The notes beneath the pieces are model-generated. The model was not told where the DNA came from. It did not search any database and was given only the letters and a program-made list of their open reading frames with translations. Of a stretch of 62,434 bases of DNA, positions 30,226 to 60,509 are shown in pieces. The translations under genes were made by a program, and so were the position numbers. Numbering within the stretch: position 1 is the first letter of the stretch; each line of letters opens with the position of its first letter. The stretch is taken from assembly GCA_964647465.1 (NCBI GenBank), contig CAZYFS010000002.1:1-62434 (forward strand), read 5' to 3'. The stretch is from an uncultured Candidatus Saccharibacteria bacterium (GTDB taxonomy: Bacteria > Patescibacteriota > Minisyncoccia > Minisyncoccales > UBA1441).

Positions 30226-30381
30226 TTATTCGCCTTCCTTCTCTGAATCATCATCTTCTGAATCGTCATCTTCTGAATCTTCTTCTTCTGAATCTTCTTC
30301 TTCTGAATCTTCTTCTGTGCTATCTTCTTCTACTTTTTCTTCTTCTTCTGCTTTTTCTTCTGTTCCAAATTCTTCTTCCAT
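30226..30381 (-). CDS. hyperacidic 51-aa protein (not in the ORF track)
   Basis: My translation is MEEEFGTEEKAEEEEKVEEDSTEEDSEEEDSEEEDSEDDDSEDDDSEKEGE followed by TAA. It has its own strong terminator, and there is no competing ORF on either strand. Confidence 0.4.
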   Translation of the reverse strand: MEEEFGTEEKAEEEEKVEEDSTEEDSEEEDSEEEDSEDDDSEDDDSEKEGE

Positions 30382-41128: not shown

Positions 41129-41940
41129 AAAAGTGTCTTGTTGGAATGGTGTTGTTGTTAGTAGTAATCTCGTTGGCGATTGGAGCTCAATCCTCTCTCC
41201 GATTTGATGTAATACCGAACCTTCCGATGGTGAGAGAATCAACTAGTTTCATTTCTTGGTTCACCCCTGACTACGATATCCACTGGAGCGTAAACAACGT
41301 CCCAGCCGGAATCGGACAAAAGATCGAATACACTTTTCCTTCGATGGGAACATATGCGATCGTCATGGAAGTTTTCCGGGAATCCCGTTTGATTTACATG
41401 GAAGGGCGAATGGTGCAGACGCAATACTCGCCGCCGGGATACAATCCTAGTCCGCCGAAAACAGTCTCGATGACAATTGTCAGCACTCTGTCTCCTCCCC
41501 AGTTCGATGTGATGCCGCATTTTCCGACAGTGGGAGAACCAACCAGCTTTATTTCTTGGTTCACCCCTGGCTACGATATCCACTGGAGCGTAAACAACGT
41601 CTCAGCCGGAGTCGGACAAATAATCGAATATGTCTTTCCTTCGATTGAAACATATTCGGTTGTAATGGAGGTTTTCCAGGGGCCGAATCTGATTTACACG
41701 GAAGAACGAGCGGTGCAGACACAGTATTCACCGCCGGGATACAATCCTAGTCCGCCGGAAATCCCTTACGTCCCTCCAGAAACCCCCTATGTTCCGCCGG
41801 AAACTCCTTATGTTCCGCCGGAAACTCCTTATATTCCTCCGGAAATCCCCGATGTTGATCTGGGAGGTTTCTCCCCCACATCATTAGTGGGATTGCTCTT
41901 TCTCATCCTCGGTGCTTTCTTGTTGTTGCAGGAACAATAA
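41125..41940 (+). CDS. cell-surface protein: signal peptide, two tandem PKD-like domains, a PPETPYV repeat stalk and a C-terminal TM anchor
   Basis: 271 aa with two ~100-aa repeats (FDV.P..P.V.E.TSFISWFTP.YDIHWSVNNV.AG.GQ.IEY.FPS..TY..VMEVF...LIY.E.R.VQTQYSPPGYNPSPP). These are followed by 5 x PPE(T/I)PY(V/I) and then LVGLLFLILGAFLLL. Confidence 0.6.
   Translation: MKKCLVGMVLLLVVISLAIGAQSSLRFDVIPNLPMVRESTSFISWFTPDYDIHWSVNNVPAGIGQKIEYTFPSMGTYAIVMEVFRESRLIYMEGRMVQTQYSPPGYNPSPPKTVSMTIVSTLSPPQFDVMPHFPTVGEPTSFISWFTPGYDIHWSVNNVSAGVGQIIEYVFPSIETYSVVMEVFQGPNLIYTEERAVQTQYSPPGYNPSPPEIPYVPPETPYVPPETPYVPPETPYIPPEIPDVDLGGFSPTSLVGLLFLILGAFLLLQEQ
41200..41757 (+). repeat. tandem 300-nt intragenic duplication (two PKD-like modules)
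   Basis: The identical 22-mer ccactggagcgtaaacaacgtc occurs at 41280 and 41580. The flanks are colinear with substitutions. Confidence 0.85.
41753..41857 (+). repeat. 5 x 21-nt tandem coding repeat (PPETPYV)
   Basis: The units are ccgccggaaatcccttacgtc, cctccagaaaccccctatgtt, ccgccggaaactccttatgtt, ccgccggaaactccttatatt and cctccggaaatccccgatgtt. Confidence 0.9.
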
Positions 41941-46082: not shown

Positions 46083-46778
46083 CTATCTAACAATACACCT
46101 ATTAACATATTTATGTTGAAGAATTAAATGTTTTAATTTTTCTAACTCCTCGGTTGTTTTTGATTTCTCTTTTGCAAATTCTTTTTTTAATGTTTTTGTT
46201 CTTACAAATTTTTGTAGAACATAAAGTTTTGCTCCTGAGATTAAACTAGCTATCTTGATAATATCTTCATTAGTTAAAAGAGATTCTACTATCGTCGTTC
46301 GAAATTCATAATCCAAACCTGACTCCATTATAAGTTGAATGCTTTCTTTTATTTTTGTTAAATCAATCTTCGAAGCAGTTACCATCCGATATTTTTCCAA
46401 AGGAGCTTTGACGTCCATTGCCAAGTAATCAACGATCTTTTTTTTGAGAGCTTCTCGAATCACATCTGGGGAACTTCCATTAGTATCCAGTTTAATTAAG
46501 AATCCCATTTCTTTAATTTTTTCCAAGAAGGCCAAGAGATCTTTTTGCAGAGTTGGCTCACCCCCCGTTATTTCTACGGCATCCAGTTGACCTATTCTCT
46601 TTTCCAAAAAAGAAAAAATCTCTGTTTCGGGAATAGGAGGACCAAATTTTTGAGGATCAACCAATTCAACGTTATAACAATAAGGGCATCGAAAATTACA
46701 ACCCTGTGTAAAAATAATAGCACATATTTTCCCCGGGTAATCAATCAATGAAAACTTTTGAAATCCACCGATAAGCAT
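46083..46778 (-). CDS. nrdG: anaerobic ribonucleoside-triphosphate reductase activating protein (radical SAM)
   Basis: 231 aa with CNFRCPYC (CxxxCxxC). It lies directly downstream of nrdD. Confidence 0.9.
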   Translation of the reverse strand: MLIGGFQKFSLIDYPGKICAIIFTQGCNFRCPYCYNVELVDPQKFGPPIPETEIFSFLEKRIGQLDAVEITGGEPTLQKDLLAFLEKIKEMGFLIKLDTNGSSPDVIREALKKKIVDYLAMDVKAPLEKYRMVTASKIDLTKIKESIQLIMESGLDYEFRTTIVESLLTNEDIIKIASLISGAKLYVLQKFVRTKTLKKEFAKEKSKTTEELEKLKHLILQHKYVNRCIVR

Positions 46779-48868
46779 TACTTTAACTTAAAAGTTTTTC
46801 TTTCTTTAAATTCTTCTTCTTTCCCTTTATTCCATTGGCTAACCGGCCTTAGATAACCAACAGACCGGGAATAAACTTCTGTTCTTGCTCCGCATTCGGG
46901 ACAAATGGGTTGATTCCCTGATAAATAACCATGAGTGGGGCAAATACTAAACGTCGGAGTAAAAGTAAAATAAGGAAGATGATAATTATCACAAACTTTC
47001 TTAACTAAATTTTTAATAACCTCTCCATTGTTCACTCTTTCTCCAGCAAAAACATGAAGGACAGTTCCTCCGGTATATTTTTGTTGAATCTTATCCTGTA
47101 AATCTAGAGCCTCAAAAACGTCATCTGTGTAGTTTACTGGCAACTGAGTAGAATTCGTATAAAAAGGTTCCGCTCCTTTTTGATATTCTTCTTCATTGCC
47201 ACAAATGATATCAGGGATTTGTTTTTTATCTTTTAGAGCTAAACGATAAGACGTTCCCTCTGCTGGCGTTGCTTCAAGATTATAATTATTGCCGGTCTCT
47301 TTTTGGAACTGAATAAGTTTTTTTCTCATGAAATCGAGAACATCTAGTGCAAAAGTTCTTGATTTTAGATCTCCCATATTCTTTCCGAAAAGATTTAGAG
47401 TAGCTTCGTTCATGCCAATCAAGCCAATGGTAGAAAAATGATTTTTCCAATAAGAATCAAATTTTTGTTTAGCCGCCCGGAGATAAAATTTAGAATAAGG
47501 ATAGAGGTTGTCATCTGTCAATCTTTCTAAAACTTTTCTTTTAATCTCTAAACTATCTTTAGCTAGAATCATAAGTTTCTCCAGCCCCTTGAAAAATTCA
47601 TCTTTATCTTTAGAGAGATAACCTAAACGAGCCATATTGATTGTCACCACGCCGATTGATCCTGTTTGAGGATTAGCCCCAAAATAACCACCTCCCCTCT
47701 TCTGTAATTCCCTCAAATCTAACCTTAAGCGGCAACACATGCTTCGAACATCTTCTGGTTCCATATCTGAGTTTACAAAATTGGCAAAATAAGGTATTCC
47801 ATACTTTGCTGTAGCTTCCCAAAGATAATTTAATTGTTCGTCATCCCAATTAAAATCTTTCGTAATATTGTAGGTAGGAATAGGAAAAGTAAACACTCTC
47901 CCCTTGGCATCTCCGGCCAGCATTACTTCAAGGAAAGCCTGGTTTAACATATCCATCTCCTTCTGGAAATCACCATAGGTTTCCTTTTGTAATTCTCCTC
48001 CGATAACAACTGGCTGATCCTTGTAAACCGGAGAAGGTTTTAAATCCAAAGTGATATTAGTATAAGGAGTCTGAAAGCCCACTCTAGTTGGTACGTTAAT
48101 GTTAAAAACAAACTCTTGTAAAGCTTGTTTTACTGCCGGATAATCTAAATTATCAAATCGAATAAACGGAGCCAATAAAGTGTCAAAATTAGAAAGAGCT
48201 TGAGCTCCAGCCGCTTCTCCTTGAAGAGTGTAGAAAAAATTAACAACTTGTCCAAGAGCTGCTCGAAAATGTTTAGCCGGTTTGCTTTCTGTTTTGCCTG
48301 AAACCCCTTGAAATCCTTGCTTTAATAAATCTTGTAAATCCCAGCCAACGCAATAGACAGAAAGTGCTCCTAAATCATGAAGATGAAAATCTCCTCTTTC
48401 ATGGGCTTCACGAATTTCAGAAGGATAAATTTTACGCACCCAATAGATCTTGCTAACTTCTGAAGCTAAATAATTATTCAGCCCTTGTAGAGAAAAAGTC
48501 ATATTACTATTCTCTTTTATTTGCCAATCTTGACCACTTAAATATTGCTCTACTAAATCAACTGACATTTTATCTTTCATCTCCCGTAATCGAGCATGTT
48601 GTTCTCGATAAAGGATATAAGCCTTAGCTGTTTTACGATAAGGAGAGGATAAAAGAACTTCCTCTACTATATCTTGAATTTCTTCGACAGTGAGAACTTC
48701 ACGATCGATGACTTGTTGGGTTAAATTCACTACTTGAAGCGTTAGTTTCTGAGCTGCTTTCTCATCGAATTCTCCCGTAGCTTTTCCTGCCTTGCTTATT
48801 GCTTCAGTAATTTTCTTTAAATCAAATTTTACTACTCGGCCATCTCTTTTTTTGATCTTTTGAAACAT
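46778..48868 (-). CDS. nrdD: anaerobic (class III) ribonucleoside-triphosphate reductase
   Basis: 696 aa with an ATP-cone N-terminus (KRDGRVVKFDLKKI), a C-terminal Zn ribbon (CPTHG...CPECG) and the glycyl-radical motif RSVGYLRP. Confidence 0.95.
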   Translation of the reverse strand: MFQKIKKRDGRVVKFDLKKITEAISKAGKATGEFDEKAAQKLTLQVVNLTQQVIDREVLTVEEIQDIVEEVLLSSPYRKTAKAYILYREQHARLREMKDKMSVDLVEQYLSGQDWQIKENSNMTFSLQGLNNYLASEVSKIYWVRKIYPSEIREAHERGDFHLHDLGALSVYCVGWDLQDLLKQGFQGVSGKTESKPAKHFRAALGQVVNFFYTLQGEAAGAQALSNFDTLLAPFIRFDNLDYPAVKQALQEFVFNINVPTRVGFQTPYTNITLDLKPSPVYKDQPVVIGGELQKETYGDFQKEMDMLNQAFLEVMLAGDAKGRVFTFPIPTYNITKDFNWDDEQLNYLWEATAKYGIPYFANFVNSDMEPEDVRSMCCRLRLDLRELQKRGGGYFGANPQTGSIGVVTINMARLGYLSKDKDEFFKGLEKLMILAKDSLEIKRKVLERLTDDNLYPYSKFYLRAAKQKFDSYWKNHFSTIGLIGMNEATLNLFGKNMGDLKSRTFALDVLDFMRKKLIQFQKETGNNYNLEATPAEGTSYRLALKDKKQIPDIICGNEEEYQKGAEPFYTNSTQLPVNYTDDVFEALDLQDKIQQKYTGGTVLHVFAGERVNNGEVIKNLVKKVCDNYHLPYFTFTPTFSICPTHGYLSGNQPICPECGARTEVYSRSVGYLRPVSQWNKGKEEEFKERKTFKLK

Positions 48869-48901
48869 ATCTATTTATTTAGTAGTGATTAAAAACATTT
48901 C

Positions 48902-48928
48902 TGTCGACAAACGATTTTGTCGACAAAA
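48902..48928. promoter_or_regulatory. two TGTCGACA palindromes (candidate operator) in the nrdD 5' region
   Basis: tgtcgaca occurs at 48902-48909 and 48918-48925. The second copy extends to the perfect 14-nt palindrome ttttgtcgacaaaa (48915-48928). The sites lie 34-60 nt upstream of the nrdD ATG. Confidence 0.35.
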
Positions 48929-48930
48929 AT

Positions 48931-48959
48931 ATCATTACACCTTCGGCGTAAGCTTGCAA
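48931..48959 (-). promoter_or_regulatory. candidate nrdD promoter
   Basis: The minus strand reads TTGCAA, a 17-nt spacer, then TG-T-AATGAT (an extended -10-like element). The palindromes lie immediately downstream. Confidence 0.35.
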
Positions 48960-49050
48960 ATTTGTTCCTCTAAACCCCCCGAAAAATATAGAAGAACGAA
49001 AGAGCAGGAAAATCCCTTGGGAAAATTAGAAACTAAAATCATTTTTCTCC

Positions 49051-49085
49051 TAAATACAAAAAGCTCCGGCAAAACTTACCGAGAC
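49051..49085 (-). terminator. second terminator-like hairpin downstream of gmk
   Basis: The minus strand reads GTCTCGG-taagttttg-CCGGAG followed by CTTTTTGTATTT. Confidence 0.4.
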
Positions 49086-49171
49086 CTTTTATCTTCATTT
49101 CAAAAACGGTCTTTAATTTCTTAAAGAAAATTACGCCATAAACTTTTGTCAACTACACTCCCCTCCTATCA

Positions 49172-49207
49172 ATAAGAAAGATGACCGACCTCGAATCTTG
49201 AGGTCGG
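49172..49207 (-). terminator. intrinsic terminator of gmk
   Basis: The 8-bp GC-rich stem ccgacctc/gaggtcgg has a 7-nt loop and starts 5 nt after the gmk stop. The minus-strand tail is TCATCTTTCTTATT. Confidence 0.5.
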
Positions 49208-49211
49208 CTTC

Positions 49212-49862
49212 TTATTTTCGATTGGTTTCTTTTTTGAATGAGGCTTCGCAACGAGTCACGCGAATTCTCTCACTGATGATGATCGATGCCAGTTCTTGAA
49301 CAGCCGTATCTAGATCGTCATTGATAATCAGAAAATCGAAACAAGGTAGTTCCTGCATCTCGCCTTTAGCAACCTCAAGGCGGCGTTGGATCTTCTCCTC
49401 GTCTTCGGTATTGCGCTTGCGAAGGCGAGATTCGAGTTCTTTGGTTGAAGATGGTGTCAAAAATGCGTAGACAAACTTGGTTGCTCCCATATCCTTTTGC
49501 CGAAGCGCCTTAGCGCCCTTAACTTCAAGATTCAGGATGACATCGAGTCCTCGCGAGATGAAGTCGTTAATCTGTGAACGAGATGTCCCATAGTGGTCAT
49601 CCAAATACTTTACATGCTCGAGAAAATCGCCTTCTTTAATTCTTTGAACAAACTGCTCTCTCGAGATGAAGACATAGTCTTCTCCATTCACTTCAGAGGG
49701 ACGACGAGGCCGAGAGGTATAAGACACGGAATAAATGAGCCCTGGAAGCATCGCCATGACGCGATCAATGACCGAATTCTTTCCCGCTCCCGATGGACCA
49801 ATAACAACAATTGCCAATCCACTGCCAATTCCCTTCCGACTATCAGCTAAACTATTCGACAT
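49212..49862 (-). CDS. gmk: guanylate kinase
   Basis: P-loop GPSGAGKNSV plus TSRPRRPSEVNGEDYVF. I place the start at ATG 49862 (MSNSLADSRK...), 10 nt downstream of the SD AAGGAG. The ORF-track TTG extension to 49895 is probably spurious. Confidence 0.9.
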   Translation of the reverse strand: MSNSLADSRKGIGSGLAIVVIGPSGAGKNSVIDRVMAMLPGLIYSVSYTSRPRRPSEVNGEDYVFISREQFVQRIKEGDFLEHVKYLDDHYGTSRSQINDFISRGLDVILNLEVKGAKALRQKDMGATKFVYAFLTPSSTKELESRLRKRNTEDEEKIQRRLEVAKGEMQELPCFDFLIINDDLDTAVQELASIIISERIRVTRCEASFKKETNRK

Positions 49863-49955
49863 TTTGCAGCTGCTCCTTGAATTGTTCAACAGCAAGTTTC
49901 ATCTTTTTTGTTTTAATTATTTCTCCCTTCTCTAGAAAAACTAATTAACCGACTC

Positions 49956-50726
49956 TTATTTCTTTTCTATCTGACTTTTTAAGAACTCCTTTCCGCCCAT
50001 TCCCTCGAAGGCCCTTAGAATCTCTAAGGGAATAGCGAAGATTATTGTATTTGATTGATCGGAACTTATATCGTTTATCGACTGAAGAGTTCTTAAGTGA
50101 AGTGCTCCAGTTGTGCTCGATAAAGTTCTGGCTGCTTTCGCCATATTGTCGGCGGCCATTGCTTCCCCTTCTGCTTTAATAATCATTGCTCTTTTTTCTC
50201 TTTCCGCTTCTGCCTGCTTAGCAATCGTTCTTTTCATCTTATCTGGCAAGATGATATCTTTTAATTCAACGTTATTGACTTTAATTCCCCAAGGATCGCT
50301 CGCTATATCAATGATCTTTCTAATGCTTTCTGAAACTCTATCGCGCTGCGAAAGAAGTTCATCTAAATCAACTCGGCCAACTGCATCGCGCATCGTTGTC
50401 TGGGCCAATTGACTAATAGCATAATAGAAATCTTCTACTTCTAAAATAGCTTTCTCCGCTTCTGTCACCTTATAGTAAATAACAGCGTTGACGTTTACTG
50501 AAATATTATCCTTCGTAATCGCTTCTTGATTAGGAACATCAACTACCTTTACCCTTAAATCAACTTTTTTATAAGATTCAATAACTGGTAAAACTATTCG
50601 CCAGCCGGGACTCATTAGTCCAGCATATTTCCCCAATCTAAACTTGACTCCTTTTTGATATTGATTGATTTGGCGCAAAGAAGACAAAAGAACAAAAATA
50701 ATTACTCCTATAGTTGTCCAAAACAT
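49956..50726 (-). CDS. SPFH/band-7 (stomatin-like) membrane protein
   Basis: 256 aa with an N-terminal TM helix, the SPFH core (VDLRVKVVDVPNQEAITKDNISVNVNAVIYYKV) and AEAEREKRAMIIKAEGE. Confidence 0.85.
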   Translation of the reverse strand: MFWTTIGVIIFVLLSSLRQINQYQKGVKFRLGKYAGLMSPGWRIVLPVIESYKKVDLRVKVVDVPNQEAITKDNISVNVNAVIYYKVTEAEKAILEVEDFYYAISQLAQTTMRDAVGRVDLDELLSQRDRVSESIRKIIDIASDPWGIKVNNVELKDIILPDKMKRTIAKQAEAEREKRAMIIKAEGEAMAADNMAKAARTLSSTTGALHLRTLQSINDISSDQSNTIIFAIPLEILRAFEGMGGKEFLKSQIEKK

Positions 50727-50828
50727 ATTTTATTTTATTAATGATAAATTCTACTCTCCTTTAATCTTACTACAACAAACAAACAAGGCAACTAGACTTA
50801 AATAGATTCCCTCTCATTTAAACAATAA

Positions 50829-51275
50829 TTACTCTTCTTTCTTTATTTCTTTTTTGATAGTTAACCAATGATAAAGATACAAAGGAAAGCCGATTAAAAT
50901 AAGAGCAAAGGCTCCGGCAGCTGTTCTTTGTCTCTCAATCGCTTTAATATCTTCTGCGCTTACTTGGCTTGTTTTTTGCTCTTGATAATCTTCCAGCCAA
51001 CTCCCCAAAAGGATTTGTTGTTCCTCGGAAAGATCAGATTCGTTTTGACAAGCTTCTGCTATTTTTTGGATATCATCGGCTGTTGTTTCGTCAACCGACC
51101 CCTTCAGTCCCATTAAAGGGATGGCTTGCCGGTAGGTTTCCTCCTCAGCCATTGGGAAAACATACATTCTCAATCCAAGACCAACTAACTGTACTGCTCC
51201 GGTGGTTAGAAGAGTTAATCCAACCAAAGTAAAGAGATAGAGATAAATTGTTCGCACCAAAGGATGTCTTTTCAT
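50829..51275 (-). CDS. membrane protein, unknown function
   Basis: 148 aa with one N-terminal and one C-terminal TM helix flanking an acidic loop. Confidence 0.45.
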   Translation of the reverse strand: MKRHPLVRTIYLYLFTLVGLTLLTTGAVQLVGLGLRMYVFPMAEEETYRQAIPLMGLKGSVDETTADDIQKIAEACQNESDLSEEQQILLGSWLEDYQEQKTSQVSAEDIKAIERQRTAAGAFALILIGFPLYLYHWLTIKKEIKKEE

Positions 51276-51306
51276 GTTGTTTATGTTTTATTAATTAAAG
51301 ATATAT

Positions 51307-52374
51307 TTAAACTCCACTTCTAATTATGATAACATCCCCATCCTGAATAAGATAATTCTTTCCTTCCATTCGGACCAACCCCTTTTTCTGAGCTGACGAG
51401 AATCCTCCGCTCGCCAAAAGTTCTTCCCATTGAATAACATCTGCCTTGATAAAGTTTTTCTCGAAATCAGTATGAATCACTCCTCCGGCTTGAGGAGCTG
51501 TCGATCCTTTTTTAAGCGTCCAGGCTCGAGCTTCATCTGGCCCAGTCGTAAAAAAAGTTATTAAATCTAACAAAGAATAGGTTTTTCTCACAAAAGTATT
51601 GACGTTCAGTTTCTCTGCTATCCCAAAAGATATTCTTTCCTCTAAAGATAAATTGGCTCCATCAAATTCAGTTAAAATATCCATCACGAGATAGGGCCAT
51701 TTATTCTTTTCGAAAACATCAATGACTTTCTTGTCTATTTCTTCTTCTTTCCCGTTTAATAAATAAAGACGTTGCTTTAAAGTAAGCAACTGATATTCCT
51801 TTAAGATTTTTTGTTCGCGATCATTAAAAACCTCTTCCGATAAAATCCCTCCTTTATCAAGGATAGCTTGAGCCTTTCTCAACGCCATTAATTCTAGTTC
51901 TTCTTCTTTATCGTTTGTTTTTGCTTTTTTTGCGATGGCGTTGATCCTTTTTTCTAAGGTTACCAAATCTTTAAGAGCCATTTCCGTATCCAAAATTTCT
52001 TTGTCGCGCAAAATATCAATACTCGGTTGAACATTGATAATCTGGTCATTAACAAAAGCCCGCAAAACATAAACAATCATATCCACTTCACGAACGTTGG
52101 CTAAGAACTTATTTCCCAGTCCCTTTCCTTTGCTTGCTCCTTTAACTAAGCCCGCGATATCAACAAACTCTATGACTGTATATATTTTCTTCAACGAATG
52201 AGCCAAAGCTGCTAATTTATCCACCCTATTGTCGGGAACCATTACTGTCCCGACATTGGGATCAATCGTACAAAAGGGATAATTAGCCCTATCGATTTCT
52301 TTCCTGGTTATAACTTGGAACAAGGTTGATTTTCCAACATTAGGTAAACCAACGATTCCGATATGAAGTGGCAT
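51307..52374 (-). CDS. ychF: ribosome-binding ATPase YchF
   Basis: 355 aa with GIVGLPNVGKSTLF, DIAGLVKGAS and the C-terminal TGS/YchF domain (RAWTLKKGSTAPQAGGVIHTDFEKNFI). Confidence 0.95.
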   Translation of the reverse strand: MPLHIGIVGLPNVGKSTLFQVITRKEIDRANYPFCTIDPNVGTVMVPDNRVDKLAALAHSLKKIYTVIEFVDIAGLVKGASKGKGLGNKFLANVREVDMIVYVLRAFVNDQIINVQPSIDILRDKEILDTEMALKDLVTLEKRINAIAKKAKTNDKEEELELMALRKAQAILDKGGILSEEVFNDREQKILKEYQLLTLKQRLYLLNGKEEEIDKKVIDVFEKNKWPYLVMDILTEFDGANLSLEERISFGIAEKLNVNTFVRKTYSLLDLITFFTTGPDEARAWTLKKGSTAPQAGGVIHTDFEKNFIKADVIQWEELLASGGFSSAQKKGLVRMEGKNYLIQDGDVIIIRSGV

Positions 52375-52440
52375 TAATTTAAATTTTAATAACTTTCTTT
52401 ATTCTAGTCCTTTTTTCTTTTTTTCTCAATCATTATAATA

Positions 52441-52468
52441 AAAAAAACGAACACTAAGTGTATGTTCG
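52441..52468 (-). terminator. intrinsic terminator after the Gly-rich small ORF
   Basis: The minus strand reads CGAACA-tacacttag-TGTTCG followed by TTTTTTT. Confidence 0.55.
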
Positions 52469-52507
52469 ATTTTTAGAAAAAAACTTCTCTCGTCTCTACT
52501 ATCAAGA

Positions 52508-52678
52508 TTAATCCTCCCTTATCCCGGCACCACCGGTAGAATCATTAGGACCAGAAAAACAACCCAATAGCTGACCTCCTCCTGAACTATCTCTGGGACC
52601 AAGAAGATAAACTCTATATCCACCACCACCGTCACCGTCTTTGGGTCCAACATTTTTAATGTGATTTATTATTTTCAT
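52508..52678 (-). CDS. 56-aa Gly-rich peptide with three GPxD..GGG repeats (not in the ORF track)
   Basis: My translation is MKIINHIKNVGPKDGDGGGGYRVYLLGPRDSSGGGQLLGCFSGPNDSTGGAGIRED followed by TAA. It has its own terminator, and a TATAAT lies 8 nt upstream of the ATG. The triple in-frame repeat argues for coding. Confidence 0.45.
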   Translation of the reverse strand: MKIINHIKNVGPKDGDGGGGYRVYLLGPRDSSGGGQLLGCFSGPNDSTGGAGIRED

Positions 52679-52712
52679 AATTAAGTATTATAAATTTTAA
52701 GAATTATTGAAT

Positions 52713-53030
52713 TTATTCTTCCAATTTTACAGCCGTACCATAAACTAAAAGCTCGGCTGCTCCAGTAAGAATCTGAGAAGTAGTAAAGCGAACGCAAACA
52801 ATTGCATCAGCTTTCATCTCTTCCGCATCTTTAGTCATCCTTTCAATGGCTATTTCTCTCGCTTCTTCTAGGGCTTCAGTATATTCTTTAATCTCGCCAC
52901 CTACTATCCCTCGTAGACCCGCAATAATATCTTTGCCAAGATGCTTGGCTCTAATCGTACTCCCTCGGACTAAACCTAAACTTTCCTTGATTTCTTTCCC
53001 TATAATTTGGTCAGAAGTTGTAATTATCAT
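52713..53030 (-). CDS. YbjQ/UPF0145 family protein
   Basis: 105 aa. MIITTSDQIIGKEI...VRGSTIRAKHLGKDIIAGLRGIVGGEI...A...VYGTAVKL is the canonical UPF0145 pattern. Confidence 0.8.
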   Translation of the reverse strand: MIITTSDQIIGKEIKESLGLVRGSTIRAKHLGKDIIAGLRGIVGGEIKEYTEALEEAREIAIERMTKDAEEMKADAIVCVRFTTSQILTGAAELLVYGTAVKLEE

Positions 53031-53224
53031 GATTTTTTTTCTTTAATTCTTTCTCTAACAAGAGAAATTAAAATAATAATGATTCCTAAGAAAATTGTTA
53101 TAATTGCCCACTTAACTACAATCGGGATTGTTAAATCTTTTAGAAATTCAGCCAAACCAAAACCGATTAGAGTCAAAAAACCGACCGAAAGAACTCCTAC
53201 TCCTAAAATATTCCAGATCTTCAT
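53027..53224 (-). CDS. small 2-TM membrane protein
   Basis: 65 aa, hydrophobic. It overlaps the ybjQ-like start by 4 nt. Confidence 0.4.
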   Translation of the reverse strand: MKIWNILGVGVLSVGFLTLIGFGLAEFLKDLTIPIVVKWAIITIFLGIIIILISLVRERIKEKKS

Positions 53225-53298
53225 CTTTTAATCGTAATAAAAATTAAGAAAATACTAATCTCATCTAAAGGGTTTTAATCTCTTGAATTATCCTAAAA

Positions 53299-53763
53299 TT
53301 AGGACTTGGCTTTTACTGATTTCTTTTCTCTATTCTTTATCAACAAGATAATACTTCCTATCGTTCCAACACAAAAAGCAATTGGGCAAACAATTATTGT
53401 CAACAGGAAAAACCCCATTGTGAATGTTTTCTCCAACAAAAACAATAAAACATCCAAGAAAATTGAATTACTCGTTATTGTGACTAAGGCATAAAAAAGA
53501 CTATGCAAAAAAAGGTAGATAAAAAAACTCGCTGAGGAAATTCCCGTTAACATTAAAAAACGTCGGGTATTTCCTTTTGTTTCGCTTTTTTTAGTTAAAA
53601 ATATTAAAATTCCTCCGACTAAAGAGGAGATTATCAAAGGAATCGAAGACACCCAACCTAGTTGAGTAGAATCTCCAATCGAGAGAATAAAAGCCTGACC
53701 AACAACAAGAAAAGCTGTTGCCACCTGAAGCCAAAATACAAACAATAAGGATCTCTTTATCAT
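53299..53763 (-). CDS. 4-TM membrane protein, unknown function
   Basis: 154 aa, hydrophobic. Its first 41 codons (53641..53763) lie inside the duplicated segment. Confidence 0.5.
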   Translation of the reverse strand: MIKRSLLFVFWLQVATAFLVVGQAFILSIGDSTQLGWVSSIPLIISSLVGGILIFLTKKSETKGNTRRFLMLTGISSASFFIYLFLHSLFYALVTITSNSIFLDVLLFLLEKTFTMGFFLLTIIVCPIAFCVGTIGSIILLIKNREKKSVKAKS

Positions 53764-53813
53764 TAATTTATTTTACCAGAAAAACAATTTCTTGGATAGG
53801 ATAAATTTCTGTT

Positions 53814-54125
53814 TTAGTTAAGCTCCCCTTTTTGTTCTTCGGTTGAATTTGTTTTAACAATTTTAATCGCCCGTCCTTCGATTAAAGCACGAGTTATTTT
53901 TTTATAAGCCGAAGATAAGATCCTCTGCAAGGTACTTTGAGAAGTATTCATTTTCTCGGCTACCGCTTGTTGATTTAGATTTTCTATATTTTTTAGCCTC
54001 AAAGCTTCTATCTCTTCCGTCGTTAGTTCGGTTACCTTGAGATGCATCATCGGAACTCCTAAGGGTTTAAAATAAGTAATGTCCGGAGAAAAACTAACTC
54101 TTCGACAAAGTCTCGGTCTTGACAT
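53814..54125 (-). CDS. DUF134 (UPF0251) family predicted DNA-binding protein, copy 1
   Basis: I place the start at MSRPRLCRRVSFSPDITYFKP (the DUF134 N-terminal signature). A sigma-r4-like HTH follows (LTTEEIEALRLKNIENLNQQAVAEKMNTSQSTLQRIL). The ORF-track start at 54167 adds 14 unlikely residues. Confidence 0.75.
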   Translation of the reverse strand: MSRPRLCRRVSFSPDITYFKPLGVPMMHLKVTELTTEEIEALRLKNIENLNQQAVAEKMNTSQSTLQRILSSAYKKITRALIEGRAIKIVKTNSTEEQKGELN

Positions 54126-54154
54126 AATAATTAATTGTTCAAAGAAAAAGATTT

Positions 54155-54181
54155 CCCGACTCCTCAAATTAAGAAGTCGGG
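54155..54181 (-). terminator. intra-operon terminator/attenuator-like hairpin between the DUF5320 and DUF134 genes (also at 55408..55434)
   Basis: The minus strand reads CCCGACT-tcttaatttgagg-AGTCGGG followed by AAATCTTTTTCTTT. Confidence 0.4.
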
Positions 54182-54192
54182 AATAATCTTTT

Positions 54193-54459
54193 TTATTTCT
54201 GGTTCTCTATTTCTGCTAAGCGCTCTTTGATTGCTTTCAATTCTTCTTCCAAGGAAGTTGCTTCATCTGTCAACATTTCGTTTTCTTCTCGGCGAGTGAA
54301 AAATCGGCGACCAAGTCTTGGTCCATAACCGTATCCACTACCGTATCCAGCTCCGTATCCTCCTCCGTATCCTCCTCGAGCACCTGCTCCACAGGGACCT
54401 ACTCCTCGTCCAGTTCCTGCTCCTAATCCAGCAGGTCCAGATCCATCAAATCTTGGCAT
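54193..54459 (-). CDS. DUF5320 family protein (Gly-rich N-terminus, coiled-coil C-terminus), copy 1
   Basis: 88 aa. MPRFDGSGPAGLGAGTGRGVGPCGAG...GYG repeats...LEEELKAIKERLAEIE matches my recollection of DUF5320. Confidence 0.7.
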   Translation of the reverse strand: MPRFDGSGPAGLGAGTGRGVGPCGAGARGGYGGGYGAGYGSGYGYGPRLGRRFFTRREENEMLTDEATSLEEELKAIKERLAEIENQK

Positions 54460-54520
54460 AATTGTTTTATAGTTTTAATTTTTTCTTAATAGTTCGACTT
54501 TTATAATAACTATTATAATG

Positions 54521-54549
54521 AGTATATACCCACAACAATATCTTGTCAA
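54521..54549 (-). promoter_or_regulatory. sigma70-like promoter of the DUF5320-DUF134 unit (copy 1; identical copy at 55774..55802)
   Basis: The minus strand reads TTGACA, a 17-nt spacer, then TATACT. The imperfect palindrome TTATAATA-AC-TATTATAA (54501-54518) lies 2 nt downstream of the -10 element. Confidence 0.5.
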
Positions 54550-54623
54550 GTCCCAATTGTTCTATTTTTAATTTATTACTTTGCCAAGAATTAGCTTTTC
54601 TTTTAAAGCTTTTAGCTTTTTTA

Positions 54624-54815
54624 CTACTCCAAAGTAATAGCTGCAACGGGACAAGCTTTTATCGCTTGTTCTATGCATTCAGCATCCGCATTTTTAACTT
54701 TTGATTTTCCGTCAATGATTTCAAAGCCTTCTGGGCATACACTTTGGCAAGCACCACAGCCAAAACATTTGGTTCTGTCAATTTTTACTTTTTGATTTGT
54801 TTTATTATTTTCCAT
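54624..54815 (-). CDS. small single-cluster 4Fe-4S ferredoxin, copy 1
   Basis: I place the start at MENNKTNQKVKIDRTKC. The cluster motif is CFGCGACQSVCP plus the distal CP (KACPVAAI). Confidence 0.75.
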   Translation of the reverse strand: MENNKTNQKVKIDRTKCFGCGACQSVCPEGFEIIDGKSKVKNADAECIEQAIKACPVAAITLE

Positions 54816-54839
54816 AATTAAAATTTTAATAATACACAA

Positions 54840-55016
54840 TTAATAACCTAATCTCTGTTTTGAATTTATGTCTAAAAAAATAACTCGTGCTTTAATCGAA
54901 GACACCCAACCTAGTTGAGTAGAATCTCCAATCGAGAGAATAAAAGCCTGACCAACAACAAGAAAAGCTGTTGCCACCTGAAGCCAAAATACAAACAATA
55001 AGGATCTCTTTATCAT
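54840..55016 (-). pseudogene. duplication-generated chimeric fragment: the first 41 codons of the 53299..53763 membrane gene fused to junction sequence
   Basis: 54894..55016 is identical to 53641..53763. The reading frame continues through the junction as ...GWVSSIKARVIFLDINSKQRLGY, then a stop (58 aa). Confidence 0.7.
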
Positions 55017-55066
55017 TAATTTATTTTACCAGAAAAACAATTTCTTGGATAGGATAAATTTCTGTT

Positions 55067-55378
55067 TTAGTTAAGCTCCCCTTTTTGTTCTTCGGTTGAA
55101 TTTGTTTTAACAATTTTAATCGCCCGTCCTTCGATTAAAGCACGAGTTATTTTTTTATAAGCCGAAGATAAGATCCTCTGCAAGGTACTTTGAGAAGTAT
55201 TCATTTTCTCGGCTACCGCTTGTTGATTTAGATTTTCTATATTTTTTAGCCTCAAAGCTTCTATCTCTTCCGTCGTTAGTTCGGTTACCTTGAGATGCAT
55301 CATCGGAACTCCTAAGGGTTTAAAATAAGTAATGTCCGGAGAAAAACTAACTCTTCGACAAAGTCTCGGTCTTGACAT
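55067..55378 (-). CDS. DUF134 (UPF0251) family predicted DNA-binding protein, copy 2
   Basis: Identical to copy 1. Confidence 0.75.
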   Translation of the reverse strand: MSRPRLCRRVSFSPDITYFKPLGVPMMHLKVTELTTEEIEALRLKNIENLNQQAVAEKMNTSQSTLQRILSSAYKKITRALIEGRAIKIVKTNSTEEQKGELN

Positions 55379-55445
55379 AATAATTAATTGTTCAAAGAAA
55401 AAGATTTCCCGACTCCTCAAATTAAGAAGTCGGGAATAATCTTTT

Positions 55446-55712
55446 TTATTTCTGGTTCTCTATTTCTGCTAAGCGCTCTTTGATTGCTTTCAATTCTTCT
55501 TCCAAGGAAGTTGCTTCATCTGTCAACATTTCGTTTTCTTCTCGGCGAGTGAAAAATCGGCGACCAAGTCTTGGTCCATAACCGTATCCACTACCGTATC
55601 CAGCTCCGTATCCTCCTCCGTATCCTCCTCGAGCACCTGCTCCACAGGGACCTACTCCTCGTCCAGTTCCTGCTCCTAATCCAGCAGGTCCAGATCCATC
55701 AAATCTTGGCAT
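55446..55712 (-). CDS. DUF5320 family protein, copy 2
   Basis: Identical to copy 1. Confidence 0.7.
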   Translation of the reverse strand: MPRFDGSGPAGLGAGTGRGVGPCGAGARGGYGGGYGAGYGSGYGYGPRLGRRFFTRREENEMLTDEATSLEEELKAIKERLAEIENQK

Positions 55713-55876
55713 AATTGTTTTATAGTTTTAATTTTTTCTTAATAGTTCGACTTTTATAATAACTATTATAATGAGTATATACCCACAACAATATCTTGTC
55801 AAGTCCCAATTGTTCTATTTTTAATTTATTACTTTGCCAAGAATTAGCTTTTCTTTTAAAGCTTTTAGCTTTTTTA

Positions 55877-56068
55877 CTACTCCAAAGTAATAGCTGCAAC
55901 GGGACAAGCTTTTATCGCTTGTTCTATGCATTCAGCATCCGCATTTTTAACTTTTGATTTTCCGTCAATGATTTCAAAGCCTTCTGGGCATACACTTTGG
56001 CAAGCACCACAGCCAAAACATTTGGTTCTGTCAATTTTTACTTTTTGATTTGTTTTATTATTTTCCAT
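55877..56068 (-). CDS. small 4Fe-4S ferredoxin, copy 2
   Basis: Identical to copy 1. Confidence 0.75.
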   Translation of the reverse strand: MENNKTNQKVKIDRTKCFGCGACQSVCPEGFEIIDGKSKVKNADAECIEQAIKACPVAAITLE

Positions 56069-56140
56069 AATTAAAATTTTAATAATACACAATTAATAAC
56101 CTAATCTCTGTTTTGAATTTATGTCTAAAAAAATAACTTA

Positions 56141-56806
56141 TTAATATAAAATTTCGATACTGGAAACATCAAAATTCTCGTATCCTCTGTGAATTATTTT
56201 CATCCCCAAAAAGAGCGGCTTAGTATTATCTGCCATTATTTCTAAAAAATAAAATTTCTCTTCGTTTTCAAAAAGTTTTGCACTACAGTCGTTCGAAATA
56301 GTTAGTAGACTTAAAGTAAAAACGTTATTCGTTTTTTGAACAGATCCAATATTAAAATCTTCTTCTTTTCTAGCAGAGATATTCGGAAGGGGCTTCTCCT
56401 CTTTTTTGACTTGAGAGGATTTTCTATGAGATAGCGGTAGATTTATTCCATCTTTCTCTTCGGCGTCCTTAATCTTCGCTCTTACGTTTTTTGCTGAACT
56501 AAATCCCACATTTTTAATATTCAGATCATATCCTTTCTGCTCCTCCTCGCCATTGTCTTTTTGAGTTAACTCCTGTTTAATCATTGGGCGAAATATGGGC
56601 ATAAAGAATGATTTTCTTATTAACGATTGAAATGCGATTCCCGCAACAGCTAGAAGAGCAATGCTTATAATAATCCACTCAACTCCCTTTCCTAAAAGAA
56701 ATAAGATAAGCGGAATCGAACATAATATTACCAATAAGAAAAATGGGTAATATTTTTCTGAACTATGTTCTCTTATAAAAAATCCTACTAATTCTTTTTG
56801 TTTCAT
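56141..56806 (-). CDS. membrane-anchored protein, unknown function
   Basis: 221 aa with two N-terminal TM helices, a K/E-rich linker and a C-terminal ~70-aa domain with no motif I recognise. Confidence 0.45.
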   Translation of the reverse strand: MKQKELVGFFIREHSSEKYYPFFLLVILCSIPLILFLLGKGVEWIIISIALLAVAGIAFQSLIRKSFFMPIFRPMIKQELTQKDNGEEEQKGYDLNIKNVGFSSAKNVRAKIKDAEEKDGINLPLSHRKSSQVKKEEKPLPNISARKEEDFNIGSVQKTNNVFTLSLLTISNDCSAKLFENEEKFYFLEIMADNTKPLFLGMKIIHRGYENFDVSSIEILY

Positions 56807-56890: not shown

Positions 56891-58150
56891 TTACTTCGGG
56901 GAATAATATTTCTTTTCCATTATCTCTTTAGGAAAATGACTTTGCTCAACTTTGCCTTTTGGAAATTCATGAGCATATTTATAACCTTGCCCATATCCTA
57001 ACTTCTTCATCAAATTAGTAACTGCGTTTCTTAGATGCAAGGGAACACCAAAAGATCCTTTCTTGGCATCTTCCTTGGCCATCAAAAGAGCAGTATAGGA
57101 AGCATTGCTCTTAGGAGCTGTCGCTAGATAGGTTGTTCCTTGGGCTAAATTAATCTGAGCCTCAGGCATTCCAACGAATTCAATCGCTTGGAATACAGCA
57201 ACCGCCACTTGAATAGCTTGGGGATCAGCATTCCCAATATCTTCTGAAGCGAAAACAACCATGCGCCGAGCAATGAATCTTGGATTTTCTCCTGATTCTA
57301 CCATCCGCGCTAACCAATAAAGAGCTCCGTTAGGATCAGAATCTCTCAAGCTTTTAATGAAAGCCGAAATAACATTGTAATGTTGCTCTCCTTTCTTGTC
57401 ATAACTCCAGGCATACCTCTTAAGAATAGAAGAAATTTCTTCTGGCTTGATTGTCTTCCGCTTTTCGCTTTTCAGGTAACTAGTTACGAACTCTAGGGCG
57501 TTTAGGGCCACTCTCGCATCACCACCAGCAAAATGAATAATTTTCTCCAAAGATTGATCAGATAGTTGTAGCCCAAAAGAACCAAGACCTTTTACTTTGT
57601 CTTTGATTGCTCTTAATAGAATCTTCCGTAAGGCAGGAGAATCAAGAGGTTTTAAAACAAAAACTGCTGAACGGGAAAGCAAAGGAGTAATGACTTCAAA
57701 AGAAGGATTTTCTGTAGTCGCCCCAATTAAAATAATTGTACCGTCTTCAACATGAGGAAGAAGAGTATCTTGCTGGGCTTTATTGAAACGATGAATCTCA
57801 TCAAGGAAAAGAATTGTTTTCTGCTTTTCATATTTTAAGCGTTCTTGAGCTAAGGCAATCGTCTCCCTAACTTCTTTAACGTTCGTAGACACGGCGGAAA
57901 ACTGGACAAAATAAGATTGCGTCTCGCAAGCAATAATTCTAGCTAAGGTTGTCTTGCCTGAGCCGGGTGGGCCCCAGAAAATAAAAGAAGACAATCGATC
58001 ATCTTGAATTATCTTTCTTAAAGGGCTTCCCTTCCCTACTAATTCTTCCTGGCCAAAGAAAGCTTTGAAATCCGAAGGACGCATCCTTTCGGCTAAAGGT
58101 GCATTTTTCTCCTTTATATCCTGATGGGCTTGATCAAATAAATCTACCAT
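56891..58150 (-). CDS. rarA: replication-associated recombination protein A (AAA+ ATPase RarA/MgsA)
   Basis: 419 aa with Walker A GPPGSGKTT, Walker B LFLDEIHRFNK and the MgsA C-terminal domain (ISAFIKSLRDSDPNGALYWLARM). Confidence 0.9.
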   Translation of the reverse strand: MVDLFDQAHQDIKEKNAPLAERMRPSDFKAFFGQEELVGKGSPLRKIIQDDRLSSFIFWGPPGSGKTTLARIIACETQSYFVQFSAVSTNVKEVRETIALAQERLKYEKQKTILFLDEIHRFNKAQQDTLLPHVEDGTIILIGATTENPSFEVITPLLSRSAVFVLKPLDSPALRKILLRAIKDKVKGLGSFGLQLSDQSLEKIIHFAGGDARVALNALEFVTSYLKSEKRKTIKPEEISSILKRYAWSYDKKGEQHYNVISAFIKSLRDSDPNGALYWLARMVESGENPRFIARRMVVFASEDIGNADPQAIQVAVAVFQAIEFVGMPEAQINLAQGTTYLATAPKSNASYTALLMAKEDAKKGSFGVPLHLRNAVTNLMKKLGYGQGYKYAHEFPKGKVEQSHFPKEIMEKKYYSPK

Positions 58151-58967: not shown

Positions 58968-60509
58968 ATGGTCACAAAAAGACAAAAAGAAGTTTTAAAT
59001 TTTATTGAGAAATACAAAAAGAAGGAAAGCTATGCTCCCTCTCTTGAAGATATAAAAAAACATTTGAAACTTTCTTCCGTTTCTACCGCTCATTACCATA
59101 TCAAAAAACTGGAAGGGCTTGGTCTATTGCGAAAAGGCGAACATCAACCTCGCTCAATGGTGACAACAAGAGAAAAACAAATGATGAGTGTTCCAATTAT
59201 TGGAACAATCTCTGCTGGACGACCAATTGAAGCTATAGAGTTTTCAGACGGTGCGGTTTTAATGGACAAACGGAGTTATAGCACAAATGATAATTTTTAT
59301 GCCCTGCGAGTGACTGGCAACAGTATGATTGATGAGGGTATTTTTGACAAAGACATTGTAGTAATAAAAAAACAAGCTAGTGCAGAAAACGGACAAACAG
59401 TCGTAGCAATTATTGACGATAATCAAGCAACCTTAAAAAAACTTTATCATTTAGAGAACAGATTTAAACTTGTGCCTGCAAATCAAAACATGTTGCCGTT
59501 TTACAGAAAGGAAGTTGAGGTACGTGGGGTAGTTGTAAAAATAATTAGAAATTTAGAACCACAAAAAAAATTACGGACTTTGGATTTATTTGCTGGAATT
59601 GGTGGAATAAGACTTGGCTTTGAAAAAGCCGGATTTGATACTGTTTTCGCAAATGATTTTGAGAAACAATGCAAAGCAACATATGACGAAAATTTTGATA
59701 CTTGTAAACTTGTTGTCGAGGACATAACAAAAATAGAGCCTGAGGATTTACCAGAATTTGATTTTTTGCTTGCTGGTTTCCCATGTCAGCCATTTTCTGT
59801 TGCAGGATATAGACAAGGATTTAAAGATGAAAAAGGACGAGGTAATTTATTTTTTTATATAGCAAGAATTATCAAAGAAAGACAACCCAAAGGCTTTTTG
59901 CTAGAAAATGTAAAAAATTTAAGAGGTCATGACGGTGGTAAAACATTTGAAATTATTGAGCAAACATTAAAAGATCTCGGCTATCATTTAAAATCAAAGA
60001 TTTTAAACAGTATGGAATATGGAAATATTCCACAAAACAGAGAGAGAATTTATATAGTTGGTTTTAAAAACAAAAAGCATGCAGACAATTTTATCTTCCC
60101 AAAGAAAAAAAAGCTTGTCACAAAAGTAACTGATTTATTGGAAAAAAATGTTTCCGAAAAATATTATTACAATGGAAAGCCATTGTATGAAAGAATAAAA
60201 AATGATGTAAAAGAAGAAGGAAAAGTTTATCAATGGCGCAGAAAGTATGTGCGTGAAAATAAAAGCGGCGTTTGCCCAACACTAACAGCAAACATGGGAA
60301 CAGGGGGGCATAATGTACCAATCATAAAAGACAAAAAAGGAATTAGAAAACTAACTCCTCTTGAGTGTGCTCGTATTCAAGGTTTTCCAATGAATTTCAA
60401 ATTACCAGATTTGGCAGATTCTGCTTTGTATAAACAGTTTGGCAATTCTGTAACTGTAAGTGTAGTTGAAGCGGTAGCAAGAGAGATTAAAAAGGCTATC
60501 AATAGTTAA
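58968..60509 (+). CDS. fusion protein: LexA-like repressor (wHTH plus S24 autopeptidase) joined to a DNA (cytosine-5)-methyltransferase
   Basis: 513 aa. Residues 1-~197 are LexA-like: RQKEVLNFI...STAHYHIKKLEGLGLL, the cleavage-site context GTISAGRPIEA (A83-G84), the GNSM serine (S119) and TLKKL (K157). Residues ~203-513 are Dcm-like: motif I LDLFAGIGG, IV GFPCQPFS, VI LLENV, VIII QNRERIYIVGF and X QFGNSVTV. Confidence 0.85.
   Translation: MVTKRQKEVLNFIEKYKKKESYAPSLEDIKKHLKLSSVSTAHYHIKKLEGLGLLRKGEHQPRSMVTTREKQMMSVPIIGTISAGRPIEAIEFSDGAVLMDKRSYSTNDNFYALRVTGNSMIDEGIFDKDIVVIKKQASAENGQTVVAIIDDNQATLKKLYHLENRFKLVPANQNMLPFYRKEVEVRGVVVKIIRNLEPQKKLRTLDLFAGIGGIRLGFEKAGFDTVFANDFEKQCKATYDENFDTCKLVVEDITKIEPEDLPEFDFLLAGFPCQPFSVAGYRQGFKDEKGRGNLFFYIARIIKERQPKGFLLENVKNLRGHDGGKTFEIIEQTLKDLGYHLKSKILNSMEYGNIPQNRERIYIVGFKNKKHADNFIFPKKKKLVTKVTDLLEKNVSEKYYYNGKPLYERIKNDVKEEGKVYQWRRKYVRENKSGVCPTLTANMGTGGHNVPIIKDKKGIRKLTPLECARIQGFPMNFKLPDLADSALYKQFGNSVTVSVVEAVAREIKKAINS

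Follow-up and report, generated by a model that had tools for sequence, protein, structure and literature searches.

The duplicated unit and its joint

The duplication considered here lies at 53641-56138 of a 62,434-nt stretch of DNA (hereafter the window; contig CAZYFS010000002.1 of GenBank assembly GCA_964647465.1, positions 1 to 62,434). To judge from its sequence, the source is an uncultivated bacterium of the Candidate Phyla Radiation (CPR)/Patescibacteria (Paceibacterota) without a close reference genome: by the RarA protein, the nearest species representative in GTDB is a Candidatus Paceibacterota metagenome-assembled genome at 63% identity, and the gene order is not conserved. At this locus a 1245-nt unit is present twice in direct, head-to-tail orientation, with 8 nt between the copies, and the junction contains an inverted copy of a segment of a DUF134 gene that lies within the unit itself. 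A preliminary description, made by reading the window alone, had called the duplication perfect, and direct comparison of 53641-54885 with 54894-56138 bears this out, with 0 mismatches over the 1245 nt of either copy. The identity ends sharply, not one further base matching on either side. The parts of the duplication are as follows.

53641-54885: copy 1 of the 1245-nt unit; the downstream copy on the minus strand; the rest of a 154-aa membrane open reading frame (ORF) follows intact
54894-56138: copy 2 of the unit; the upstream copy on the minus strand, starting 2 nt past the stop codon of a 221-aa ORF
54886-54893: templated 8-nt filler CGTGCTTT at the duplication joint; reverse complement of 53884-53891
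54873-54901: 29-nt junction string TAAAAAAATAACTCGTGCTTTAATCGAAG; 13-nt microhomology, 8-nt filler and 8-nt microhomology
53876-53904 (copy 1) and 55129-55157 (copy 2): internal template site in the DUF134 gene; ancestral donor of the filler
56126-56138: native 13-nt microhomology TAAAAAAATAACT at the right end of the unit; inverted repeat with 53892-53904
53641-53648: native 8-nt microhomology AATCGAAG at the left end of the unit; inverted relative to 53876-53883

The 29-nt junction string had been described as an inverted copy of the DUF134-gene segment with a native stretch of 13 nt at one end and of 8 nt at the other, and this holds to the base: it is the perfect reverse complement of both 53876-53904 and 55129-55157. 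Neither microhomology can be extended by another base, and the template of the filler (53884-53891) sits exactly between them, with the left breakpoint 235 nt and the right one ~980 nt away. In a repeat-finder run on the 62-kb window, the junction and its template were the sole inverted repeat of at least 25 nt with 100% complementarity, the rest reaching at most 81%. The 13-mer has no occurrences other than those at the two ends of the unit and the inverted one in the DUF134 gene. From base composition, a 13-mer and an 8-mer bridged in this way by a gap of up to 30 nt would be expected 1.5e-5 times per window, whereas the collapsed sequence has one such arrangement, its gap being exactly 8 nt; chance, therefore, does not explain the joint.

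The inverted arms are separated by 227 and 968 nt. From the 13-nt and 8-nt partial matches, a perfect 29-bp inverted repeat with a 227-nt spacer has thus been newly made, and the predicted minimum-energy RNA fold of 54860-55170 is dominated by this 29-bp stem (-86.3 kcal/mol, z = -4.6). The predicted stem would lie ~60 nt upstream of the start of the downstream ferredoxin gene, in a transcript comprising the upstream DUF134 copy and the joint.

Genes in and around the unit

All the genes of the locus lie on the minus strand and are given here in the order of transcription, the copies of duplicated genes being listed together.

56891-58150 (-): RarA/MgsA ATPase gene; first in transcription order
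56141-56806 (-): 221-aa ORF without family match; precedes the unit
54624-54815 and, second copy, 55877-56068 (-): 4Fe-4S ferredoxin, 63 aa (Pfam Fer4_13/Fer4_15); 63 aa in other assemblies too
54193-54459 and, second copy, 55446-55712 (-): DUF5320 protein, 88 aa (Pfam PF17253, E 1.9e-12)
53814-54125 and, second copy, 55067-55378 (-): DUF134 protein (Pfam PF02001, E 2.9e-19; NCBIfam PRK04217)
54840-55016 (-): chimeric ORF, 58 aa; 41 codons of the membrane ORF and 17 codons through the junction
53299-53763 (-): intact membrane ORF, 154 aa; the left breakpoint falls at codon 41/42

A 65-aa ORF, a YbjQ-family gene and a YchF GTPase gene follow downstream of the 154-aa membrane ORF. The unit, accordingly, comprises the whole intergenic leader, the genes for the ferredoxin, DUF5320 and DUF134, and the membrane ORF up to codon 41; its duplication destroys no gene. 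The DUF134 protein, whose gene harbours the template site, has a helix-turn-helix of the sigma-70 region 4 type. A promoter scan placed a near-consensus promoter-like site (TTGACA, 17 nt, TATACT; 54549-54521) before the DUF5320 gene, and a terminator scan placed a 14-bp terminator-like hairpin (54183-54153) after it, so that at least this gene looks self-contained and its dosage would really double. For the unit proteins NCBIfam gave nothing past "hypothetical protein" and a sigma-70-like helix-turn-helix, and a literature search on DUF134 and DUF5320 returned no functional information; any selective benefit of the duplication is, accordingly, a matter of conjecture.

The chimeric ORF that the preliminary description had pointed out at the junction does exist, and the 58-aa protein has exact matches in four other assemblies of the Joint Genome Institute (JGI), where the JGI gene caller had called it. 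A search for the 52-aa version of this ORF called in Ga0307992 gave no record with an M or L start; as the junction sequence of Ga0307992 is identical, the length of 52 aa merely reflects a different start call. Carriers of the duplication would in this way gain a small ORF retaining the N-terminal hydrophobic segment of the membrane protein.

A further feature of the unit is a 12-nt periodicity inside the DUF5320 gene (54310-54389 and 55563-55642), which encodes a Gly-Tyr-rich stretch (GGYGGGYGAGYGSGYGYG) and is slippage-prone.

The single-copy state in sister strains

Sister contigs were gathered by exact-protein look-ups and a pattern scan, which together yielded ~15 contigs of other assemblies with 97.5-100% identity to the window. 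The comparison with related genomes that the preliminary description had called for is thereby available, and the single-copy state was found in at least nine independent assemblies of ~99% identical strains, the contigs reading through both breakpoints.

MEGAHIT k141 contigs with a single copy: ERZ27316532, ERZ27316679, ERZ27317826, ERZ27316756 and ERZ27316221
Ace Lake contigs with a single copy: Ga0075125 and Ga0307928
Further contigs with a single copy: Ga0207997 and a Logan contig of SRR5459189

One of the single-copy contigs (L001) has a unit identical to that of the window, and both its boundaries correspond to the outer boundaries of the window repeat. It carries the internal 29-mer, and the 13-nt and 8-nt microhomologies are already in place, whereas the filler CGTGCTTT at the joint is missing from the single-copy contigs. 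The microhomologies and the template, being present in single-copy strains, are hence older than the duplication. Relative to the single-copy state of these contigs, just CGTGCTTT and the second copy are new, in agreement with the earlier proposition that only the middle 8 nt of the junction string need an inverted template. A scan of the GTDB species representatives with the 29-mer gave no match.

The junction in independent samples

Probed with 128 nt centred on the joint, five contigs (L004, L005, L006, L007 and L016) from two Antarctic basins gave an exact match, three of them with the full structure and two that close on themselves.

Ga0400661_000343: 22-kb contig with the full flank-unit-junction-unit-flank structure; Taynaya Bay 11 m
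Ga0400660_0004265: full duplicated structure; Taynaya Bay 11 m
Ga0307992_1004825: full duplicated structure; Ellis Fjord 60 m, 0.1 um fraction
Ga0400659_031271 (L006; 1380 nt, 1253+127): unit and junction, self-closing loop contig; Taynaya Bay 5 m
Ga0400658_0053759 (L007; 1378 nt, 1253+125): unit and junction, self-closing loop contig; Taynaya Bay 5 m

The provenance of these assemblies is taken from PMC8620254 and its supplementary tables. There, 3300039187 and 3300038912 are given as Taynaya Bay 11 m and 5 m, collected on 28 Nov 2014, with 3300039186 and 3300038786 as Taynaya Bay re-assemblies from uncorrected reads; Ellis Fjord 60 m (8 Oct 2014) supplied 3300031601 as its 0.1-um fraction and 3300031645 as its 3-um fraction, and 3300031227 is Ace Lake 24 m (27 Nov 2013). 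According to the same source, the comparison samples are filter-collected biomass with metaSPAdes short-read assemblies, and Ellis Fjord lies ~14 km, and Taynaya Bay ~2 km, from Ace Lake, as separate basins. Each re-assembly was paired with a Taynaya Bay depth on the strength of matching contig types; given this pairing, the junction occurs, besides the window, in three or more DNA samples that are physically separate and come from two basins.

The terminal overlaps of the two loop contigs, 127 nt (exact) in L006 and 125 nt in L007, are characteristic of a k=127 graph that contains a cycle. Another contig, Ga0307990_1006645 from the 3 um fraction of Ellis Fjord 60 m, terminates exactly at the last base of the unit, as would be expected at an unresolved graph branch at which the unit-to-junction and unit-to-flank edges are both present.

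Proposed formation of the joint by template switching

The reading that accounts best for these observations is that of a genuine chromosomal tandem duplication, segregating in a natural CPR population of Antarctic marine-derived basins, which very probably formed through two microhomology-primed template switches or snap-back synthesis. In this scheme, a 3' DNA end, fresh from copying one end of the unit (...TAAAAAAATAACT), would leave its template and anneal through 13 nt to AGTTATTTTTTTA at 53892-53904, the inverted site inside the DUF134 gene. Extension along the inverted template would then run through CGTGCTTT (at least 8 nt) and AATCGAAG, whereupon the 3' end would leave again, pair by AATCGAAG with the left end of the unit, and copy the unit a second time. 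The mirror order, with the 8 nt used first and the 13 nt second, would yield the same product. The inverted template might be the opposite parental strand at the same fork or the same strand folded back; the latter is possible because the 13-nt partner lies ~970 nt upstream on the same strand. The sign of the G+C skew, which is one and the same nearly throughout the window (G+C 34-41%), together with the gene orientation suggests that the minus strand is the leading strand here, though this does not decide which nascent strand would have switched.

The proposed formation would involve no long homology, recombinase or transposase. Within +/-400 nt of the breakpoints, no direct match exceeds 11 nt, and the one of that length is out of register, so that there is no substrate for homologous recombination; a simple end-to-start joint would have 0 nt of direct microhomology, and the two breakpoint regions match best in the 13-nt inverted repeat. 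These findings agree with the preliminary description, which had proposed two template switches by way of the complementary strand of the DUF134 gene: the microhomologies and the template are ancestral, and no usable direct homology exists at the breakpoints. Pre-existing sequence accounts for every base of the joint, and no other known route appears to fit. Homologous unequal crossing-over was rejected for want of long direct repeats at the breakpoints and for the 8-nt filler at the joint. Domain matches and gene tables showed no recombinase domain in the unit or in ~20 kb around it, and the gene tables of the sister contigs showed no transposase or integrase in a neighbourhood of roughly 20 kb. 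A duplication mediated by a recombinase or as a cassette was set aside, there being no recombinase nearby and the left end cutting the membrane gene at codon 41, and an origin as a mobile element or cassette (insertion sequence (IS), transposon or integron cassette) was dismissed likewise, for the lack of recombinase domains and a left end inside a gene.

An AT-rich quasi-palindrome also deserves mention, at 54794-54853 and 56047-56106, with overlapping 37-nt arms that are 76% complementary and span the ferredoxin start codon. It lies 20-90 nt from the right breakpoint of the unit, and is a conceivable replication stall site beside the first switch point.

Comparison with known rearrangements

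Template-switch errors arise when a polymerase transiently switches to a nearby alternate template (PMC7954356), and template switching at stalled forks has been presented as a route to bacterial tandem duplications other than homologous recombination (bioRxiv 10.64898/2026.05.22.727201). Quasipalindrome-associated mutations likewise occur through template switching (PMC7202029), and strand switching at short inverted repeats starts amplification and leaves inverted material at the joints (PMC4689423, PMC11790251). The duplication studied here is best explained as a RecA-independent event of the class that comprises fork stalling and template switching (FoSTeS), microhomology-mediated break-induced replication (MMBIR) and quasipalindrome template switching. 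It is, accordingly, to be counted with a known class of rearrangement and not as a new mechanism or system; the literature retrieved on these classes (from E. coli, yeast and primates, and on tools for classifying bacterial duplications) contained no report of this locus or lineage.

With the FoSTeS/MMBIR class the joint shares those features that can be tested in a finished sequence, namely breakpoints without long homology, a microhomology at each switch (13 nt and 8 nt) and a short inverted insert templated nearby, along with a gain in copy number. It differs in its extent of 1.25 kb and in being a natural polymorphism of an uncultivated CPR bacterium rather than the product of a selection experiment or a patient's rearrangement, and the mechanism is here reconstructed from the scar alone. 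The likeness to quasipalindrome mutations, for which there is the Ripley model and whose E. coli hot spots have been studied by Lovett's laboratory, lies in a nascent 3' end copying an inverted partial repeat, which converts an imperfect repeat to a perfect one (here of 29 bp). In the classical cases, however, the arms are a few to tens of nucleotides apart, as against 227-980 nt here, and the strand returns to its origin and leaves a small patch, whereas here the return would have been 1245 nt back and the outcome a duplication. Salmonella tandem inversion duplications (TIDs) and yeast origin-dependent inverted-repeat amplification (ODIRA), in both of which amplification begins with strand switching at short inverted repeats, also have inverted material at their joints; these carry a full inverted middle copy, as an inverted triplication, unless remodelled, whereas here only 8-29 nt are inverted and the copies are direct. 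RecA-dependent unequal crossing-over between IS elements, rrn operons or repetitive extragenic palindromic (REP) sequences resembles the present case in producing a collapsible head-to-tail duplication, but it needs direct repeats of tens to thousands of nucleotides and leaves no filler, as compared with the 11-nt out-of-register match and the 8-nt filler found here.

Alternative explanations

Perfect repeats of 1.2 kb are well known to call for caution in metagenomic contigs, and the junction could in principle be an artefact, either a mis-join by the assembler or an in-vitro chimera from amplification or library construction; the polymerase chimeras known from multiple displacement amplification likewise join inverted segments at microhomologies. 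A mis-join in the graph would, however, require k of at most 13 at one switch and at most 8 at the other, and the junction holds at least 19 21-mers and 134 127-mers that neither strand of the single-copy sequence contains and that hence must come from reads. The same 128-nt junction was recovered from physically separate samples of two water bodies, taken on different dates and on different filters; the samples were biomass on filters, and the passages of PMC8620254 at hand do not mention an amplification step. The identical joint in separate samples and the novel k-mers together exclude a graph artefact and an in-vitro chimera, so that an artefact, the least probable of the alternatives, can be regarded as excluded for practical purposes. 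An assembly loop in particular fails as an explanation, the junction k-mers not being derivable from a single copy and the junction not being confined to one assembly. The position taken in the preliminary description, that the rearrangement is real, is thus upheld by the identical junctions from Taynaya Bay and Ellis Fjord. The junction might alternatively reside on an extrachromosomal 1253-bp circle (the unit plus 8 nt) or in an amplified array beside a single-copy chromosome, which would mean multi-copy DNA with a DUF134 regulator, DUF5320 and a ferredoxin being kept in the CPR populations of two Antarctic basins. Two stand-alone contigs of unit and junction (L006 and L007) do close on themselves, MEGAHIT contigs of the same flank haplotype have a single copy, and no read can span 1245 nt in these Illumina data sets assembled with metaSPAdes, so that the short-read de Bruijn graph would be the same as for a two-copy tandem. 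Such loop contigs are, however, the normal output for an unresolved tandem duplication too. The unit encodes no replication initiator or recombinase, but only the ferredoxin, DUF5320, DUF134 and a gene fragment, its left end falls at codon 41 of the membrane gene instead of at a cassette boundary, and a non-replicating pop-out would dilute away rather than reach assembly depth in three samples. This makes a circle or array very improbable. The start points of the loop contigs were also considered as a sign of an isolated high-coverage cycle, a use that was rejected since both adjoin position 54652/55905, which is polymorphic or erroneous and by itself enough to create a graph vertex there.

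The duplication could also be chromosomal and have come about by a different route, either as a TID that was later trimmed or through unequal sister-chromosome break repair with snap-back synthesis. In the former version, copy, inverted copy and copy would form at the 13-nt inverted repeat, and a microhomology deletion would leave 8-29 nt inverted. The final sequence, with an inverted remnant between the 13-nt and 8-nt microhomologies, is exactly what either version would leave, and inverted repeats of at least 13 nt within 1.3 kb are common in this AT-rich genome (18 in 61 kb); against this, such a course takes one more step than a direct double switch, and an intermediate with a longer inverted segment was seen in 0 of the ~15 related contigs, so that it is considered unlikely. 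Of about the same low probability is a repeated origin of the junction, with the DUF134 bridging site acting as a hot spot and recombination between the copies reversing the event, giving a reversible dosage polymorphism in place of a single inherited allele. The contigs with the junction do carry three haplotypes of the 221-aa gene (that of the window, the 56524/56565/56816 type and the 56786/56808/56812 type), of which the latter two are found in single-copy contigs as well; moreover, perfect 1.2-kb direct repeats should often collapse by homologous recombination in RecA-proficient bacteria, restoring the ancestral sequence exactly. Yet the flanks have no single-nucleotide polymorphism (SNP) closer than 386 nt to the unit or within 1.6 kb of the junction, and short-read contigs do not phase the flank SNPs; between-strain recombination, or repeated loss after a single origin, fits the pattern equally, and a switch in two steps, spanning 230 and 980 nt, would be unlikely to happen often. 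The flank SNPs were for the same reason rejected as a lineage test for the junction contigs, being uninformative when unphased with the junction.

Several points weigh against a tandem duplication by double template switching as the preferred reading. The path from flank through unit, junction and unit to flank is, in short-read metaSPAdes assemblies, the product of heuristic loop traversal. The four Ga04006xx assemblies go back to only two DNA samples, with two assemblies apiece. L009 and L011, MEGAHIT contigs that have the flank haplotype of Ellis Fjord, run through a single copy, and the first base of L009 is that of the metaSPAdes contig which stops at the unit boundary. MEGAHIT prunes paths of locally low coverage, and the behaviour of these contigs suggests that the junction is a minority path in the L009/L011 data, in which case the locus would be polymorphic and not fixed. 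Further, the final sequence would be the same for a replicative double switch, for snap-back break repair and for a remodelled TID. Finally, the structure was read from assembled contigs, whereas depth, copy number and the linkage of junction to flank are read-level matters.

Age, copy number and spread

The preliminary description took the zero divergence of the copies to mean a very recent event, and this part of it does not stand. The unit, and with it a zone of ~5.6 kb (~50515-56146), shows no confirmed SNP in any sampled strain, including Ace Lake strains that differ by 1-2% elsewhere; with the zone invariant across strains, zero differences in 1245 nt date little. The comparison assemblies are of the short-read metaSPAdes kind, and the window is probably one as well; an assembler of the MEGAHIT type could not emit such a repeat. 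The 154-aa protein also occurs on a 50-200 kb contig of the same collection, which is taken to be that of the window itself. In a short-read graph, the unit is one edge walked twice; identical copies are then a given, and how often the edge is walked is an estimate. The identity of the copies was thus probably forced by loop traversal. The allele, moreover, is common to Ellis Fjord and Taynaya Bay, and must have persisted long enough to spread or have arisen repeatedly.

The sole mismatch seen within the unit is at 54652/55905, where the sixth base of the Taynaya Bay 5 m loop contig assembled from uncorrected reads (L007) has G to T on the coding strand, a change that would turn the cluster-ligating Cys55 of the ferredoxin into Phe. 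The loop contig from corrected reads (L006) starts at 55904, beside this position. Either the unit truly varies here, perhaps from one copy to the other, or the mismatch stems from a contig-end or oxidative sequencing error.

As to dosage, the preliminary description was right about the three genes that are doubled, and carriers would have at least two copies each of the ferredoxin, DUF5320 and DUF134 genes. Its doubling in the strict sense, with exactly two copies and fixation, is not established, MEGAHIT contigs apparently of the same Ellis Fjord population having a single copy. Coexistence of the single-copy and duplicated states is what the expected collapse of direct repeats would lead one to anticipate.

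Variation around the locus has a texture of its own. SNPs between near-identical strains are clustered in short tracts (49204-50505, 47252-47624 and 56369-56711), the guanylate kinase and Band_7 genes accounting for ~70 SNPs within 1.3 kb, and the 221-aa ORF of one Ace Lake contig for 30. The ends of several contigs coincide with tract edges, a pattern suggestive of imports by recombination or of alleles that coexist. The window at 46200-54885 is 100% identical over 8686 nt to L009 (ERZ27316679 k141_271865) on one side of the unit, with 9 substitutions and one 1-nt gap over 7.5 kb on the other, a one-sided identity that indicates either strain-mosaic contigs or recombination across the locus.

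Other features of the window

Outside the locus, a 513-aa ORF at 58968-60509 (+) encodes a complete LexA (DNA-binding domain and S24 autopeptidase; TIGR00498, E 3.5e-48) fused to a C5 cytosine DNA methyltransferase (TIGR00675, E 4e-101), and the same fusion is called in sister contigs. This is an unusual architecture, through which methylation could be linked with the SOS response. A 271-aa secreted or anchored protein is encoded at 41125-41940 (+), with an older internal 300-nt tandem duplication (repeat 41186-41761) that has given rise to two ~100-aa domains of 80% DNA identity, followed by proline-rich repeats of the PPETPYV type. At 30242-30316 there are 4-5 copies, 87-100% identical, of a 15-nt repeat (TCTGAATCNTCNTCT), presumably coding for an acidic or serine-rich stretch on the minus strand.

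Implications

The locus provides a clean natural duplication joint that appears to record its own mechanism, with the ancestor, the product and the population context available together. If formed as proposed, it would mean that microhomology-primed template switching makes gene-dosage variation in wild populations of a CPR bacterium with a reduced genome. The 29-nt junction may in turn serve as a ready marker by which the persistence of duplications, as against their collapse, could be followed in existing metagenome reads.

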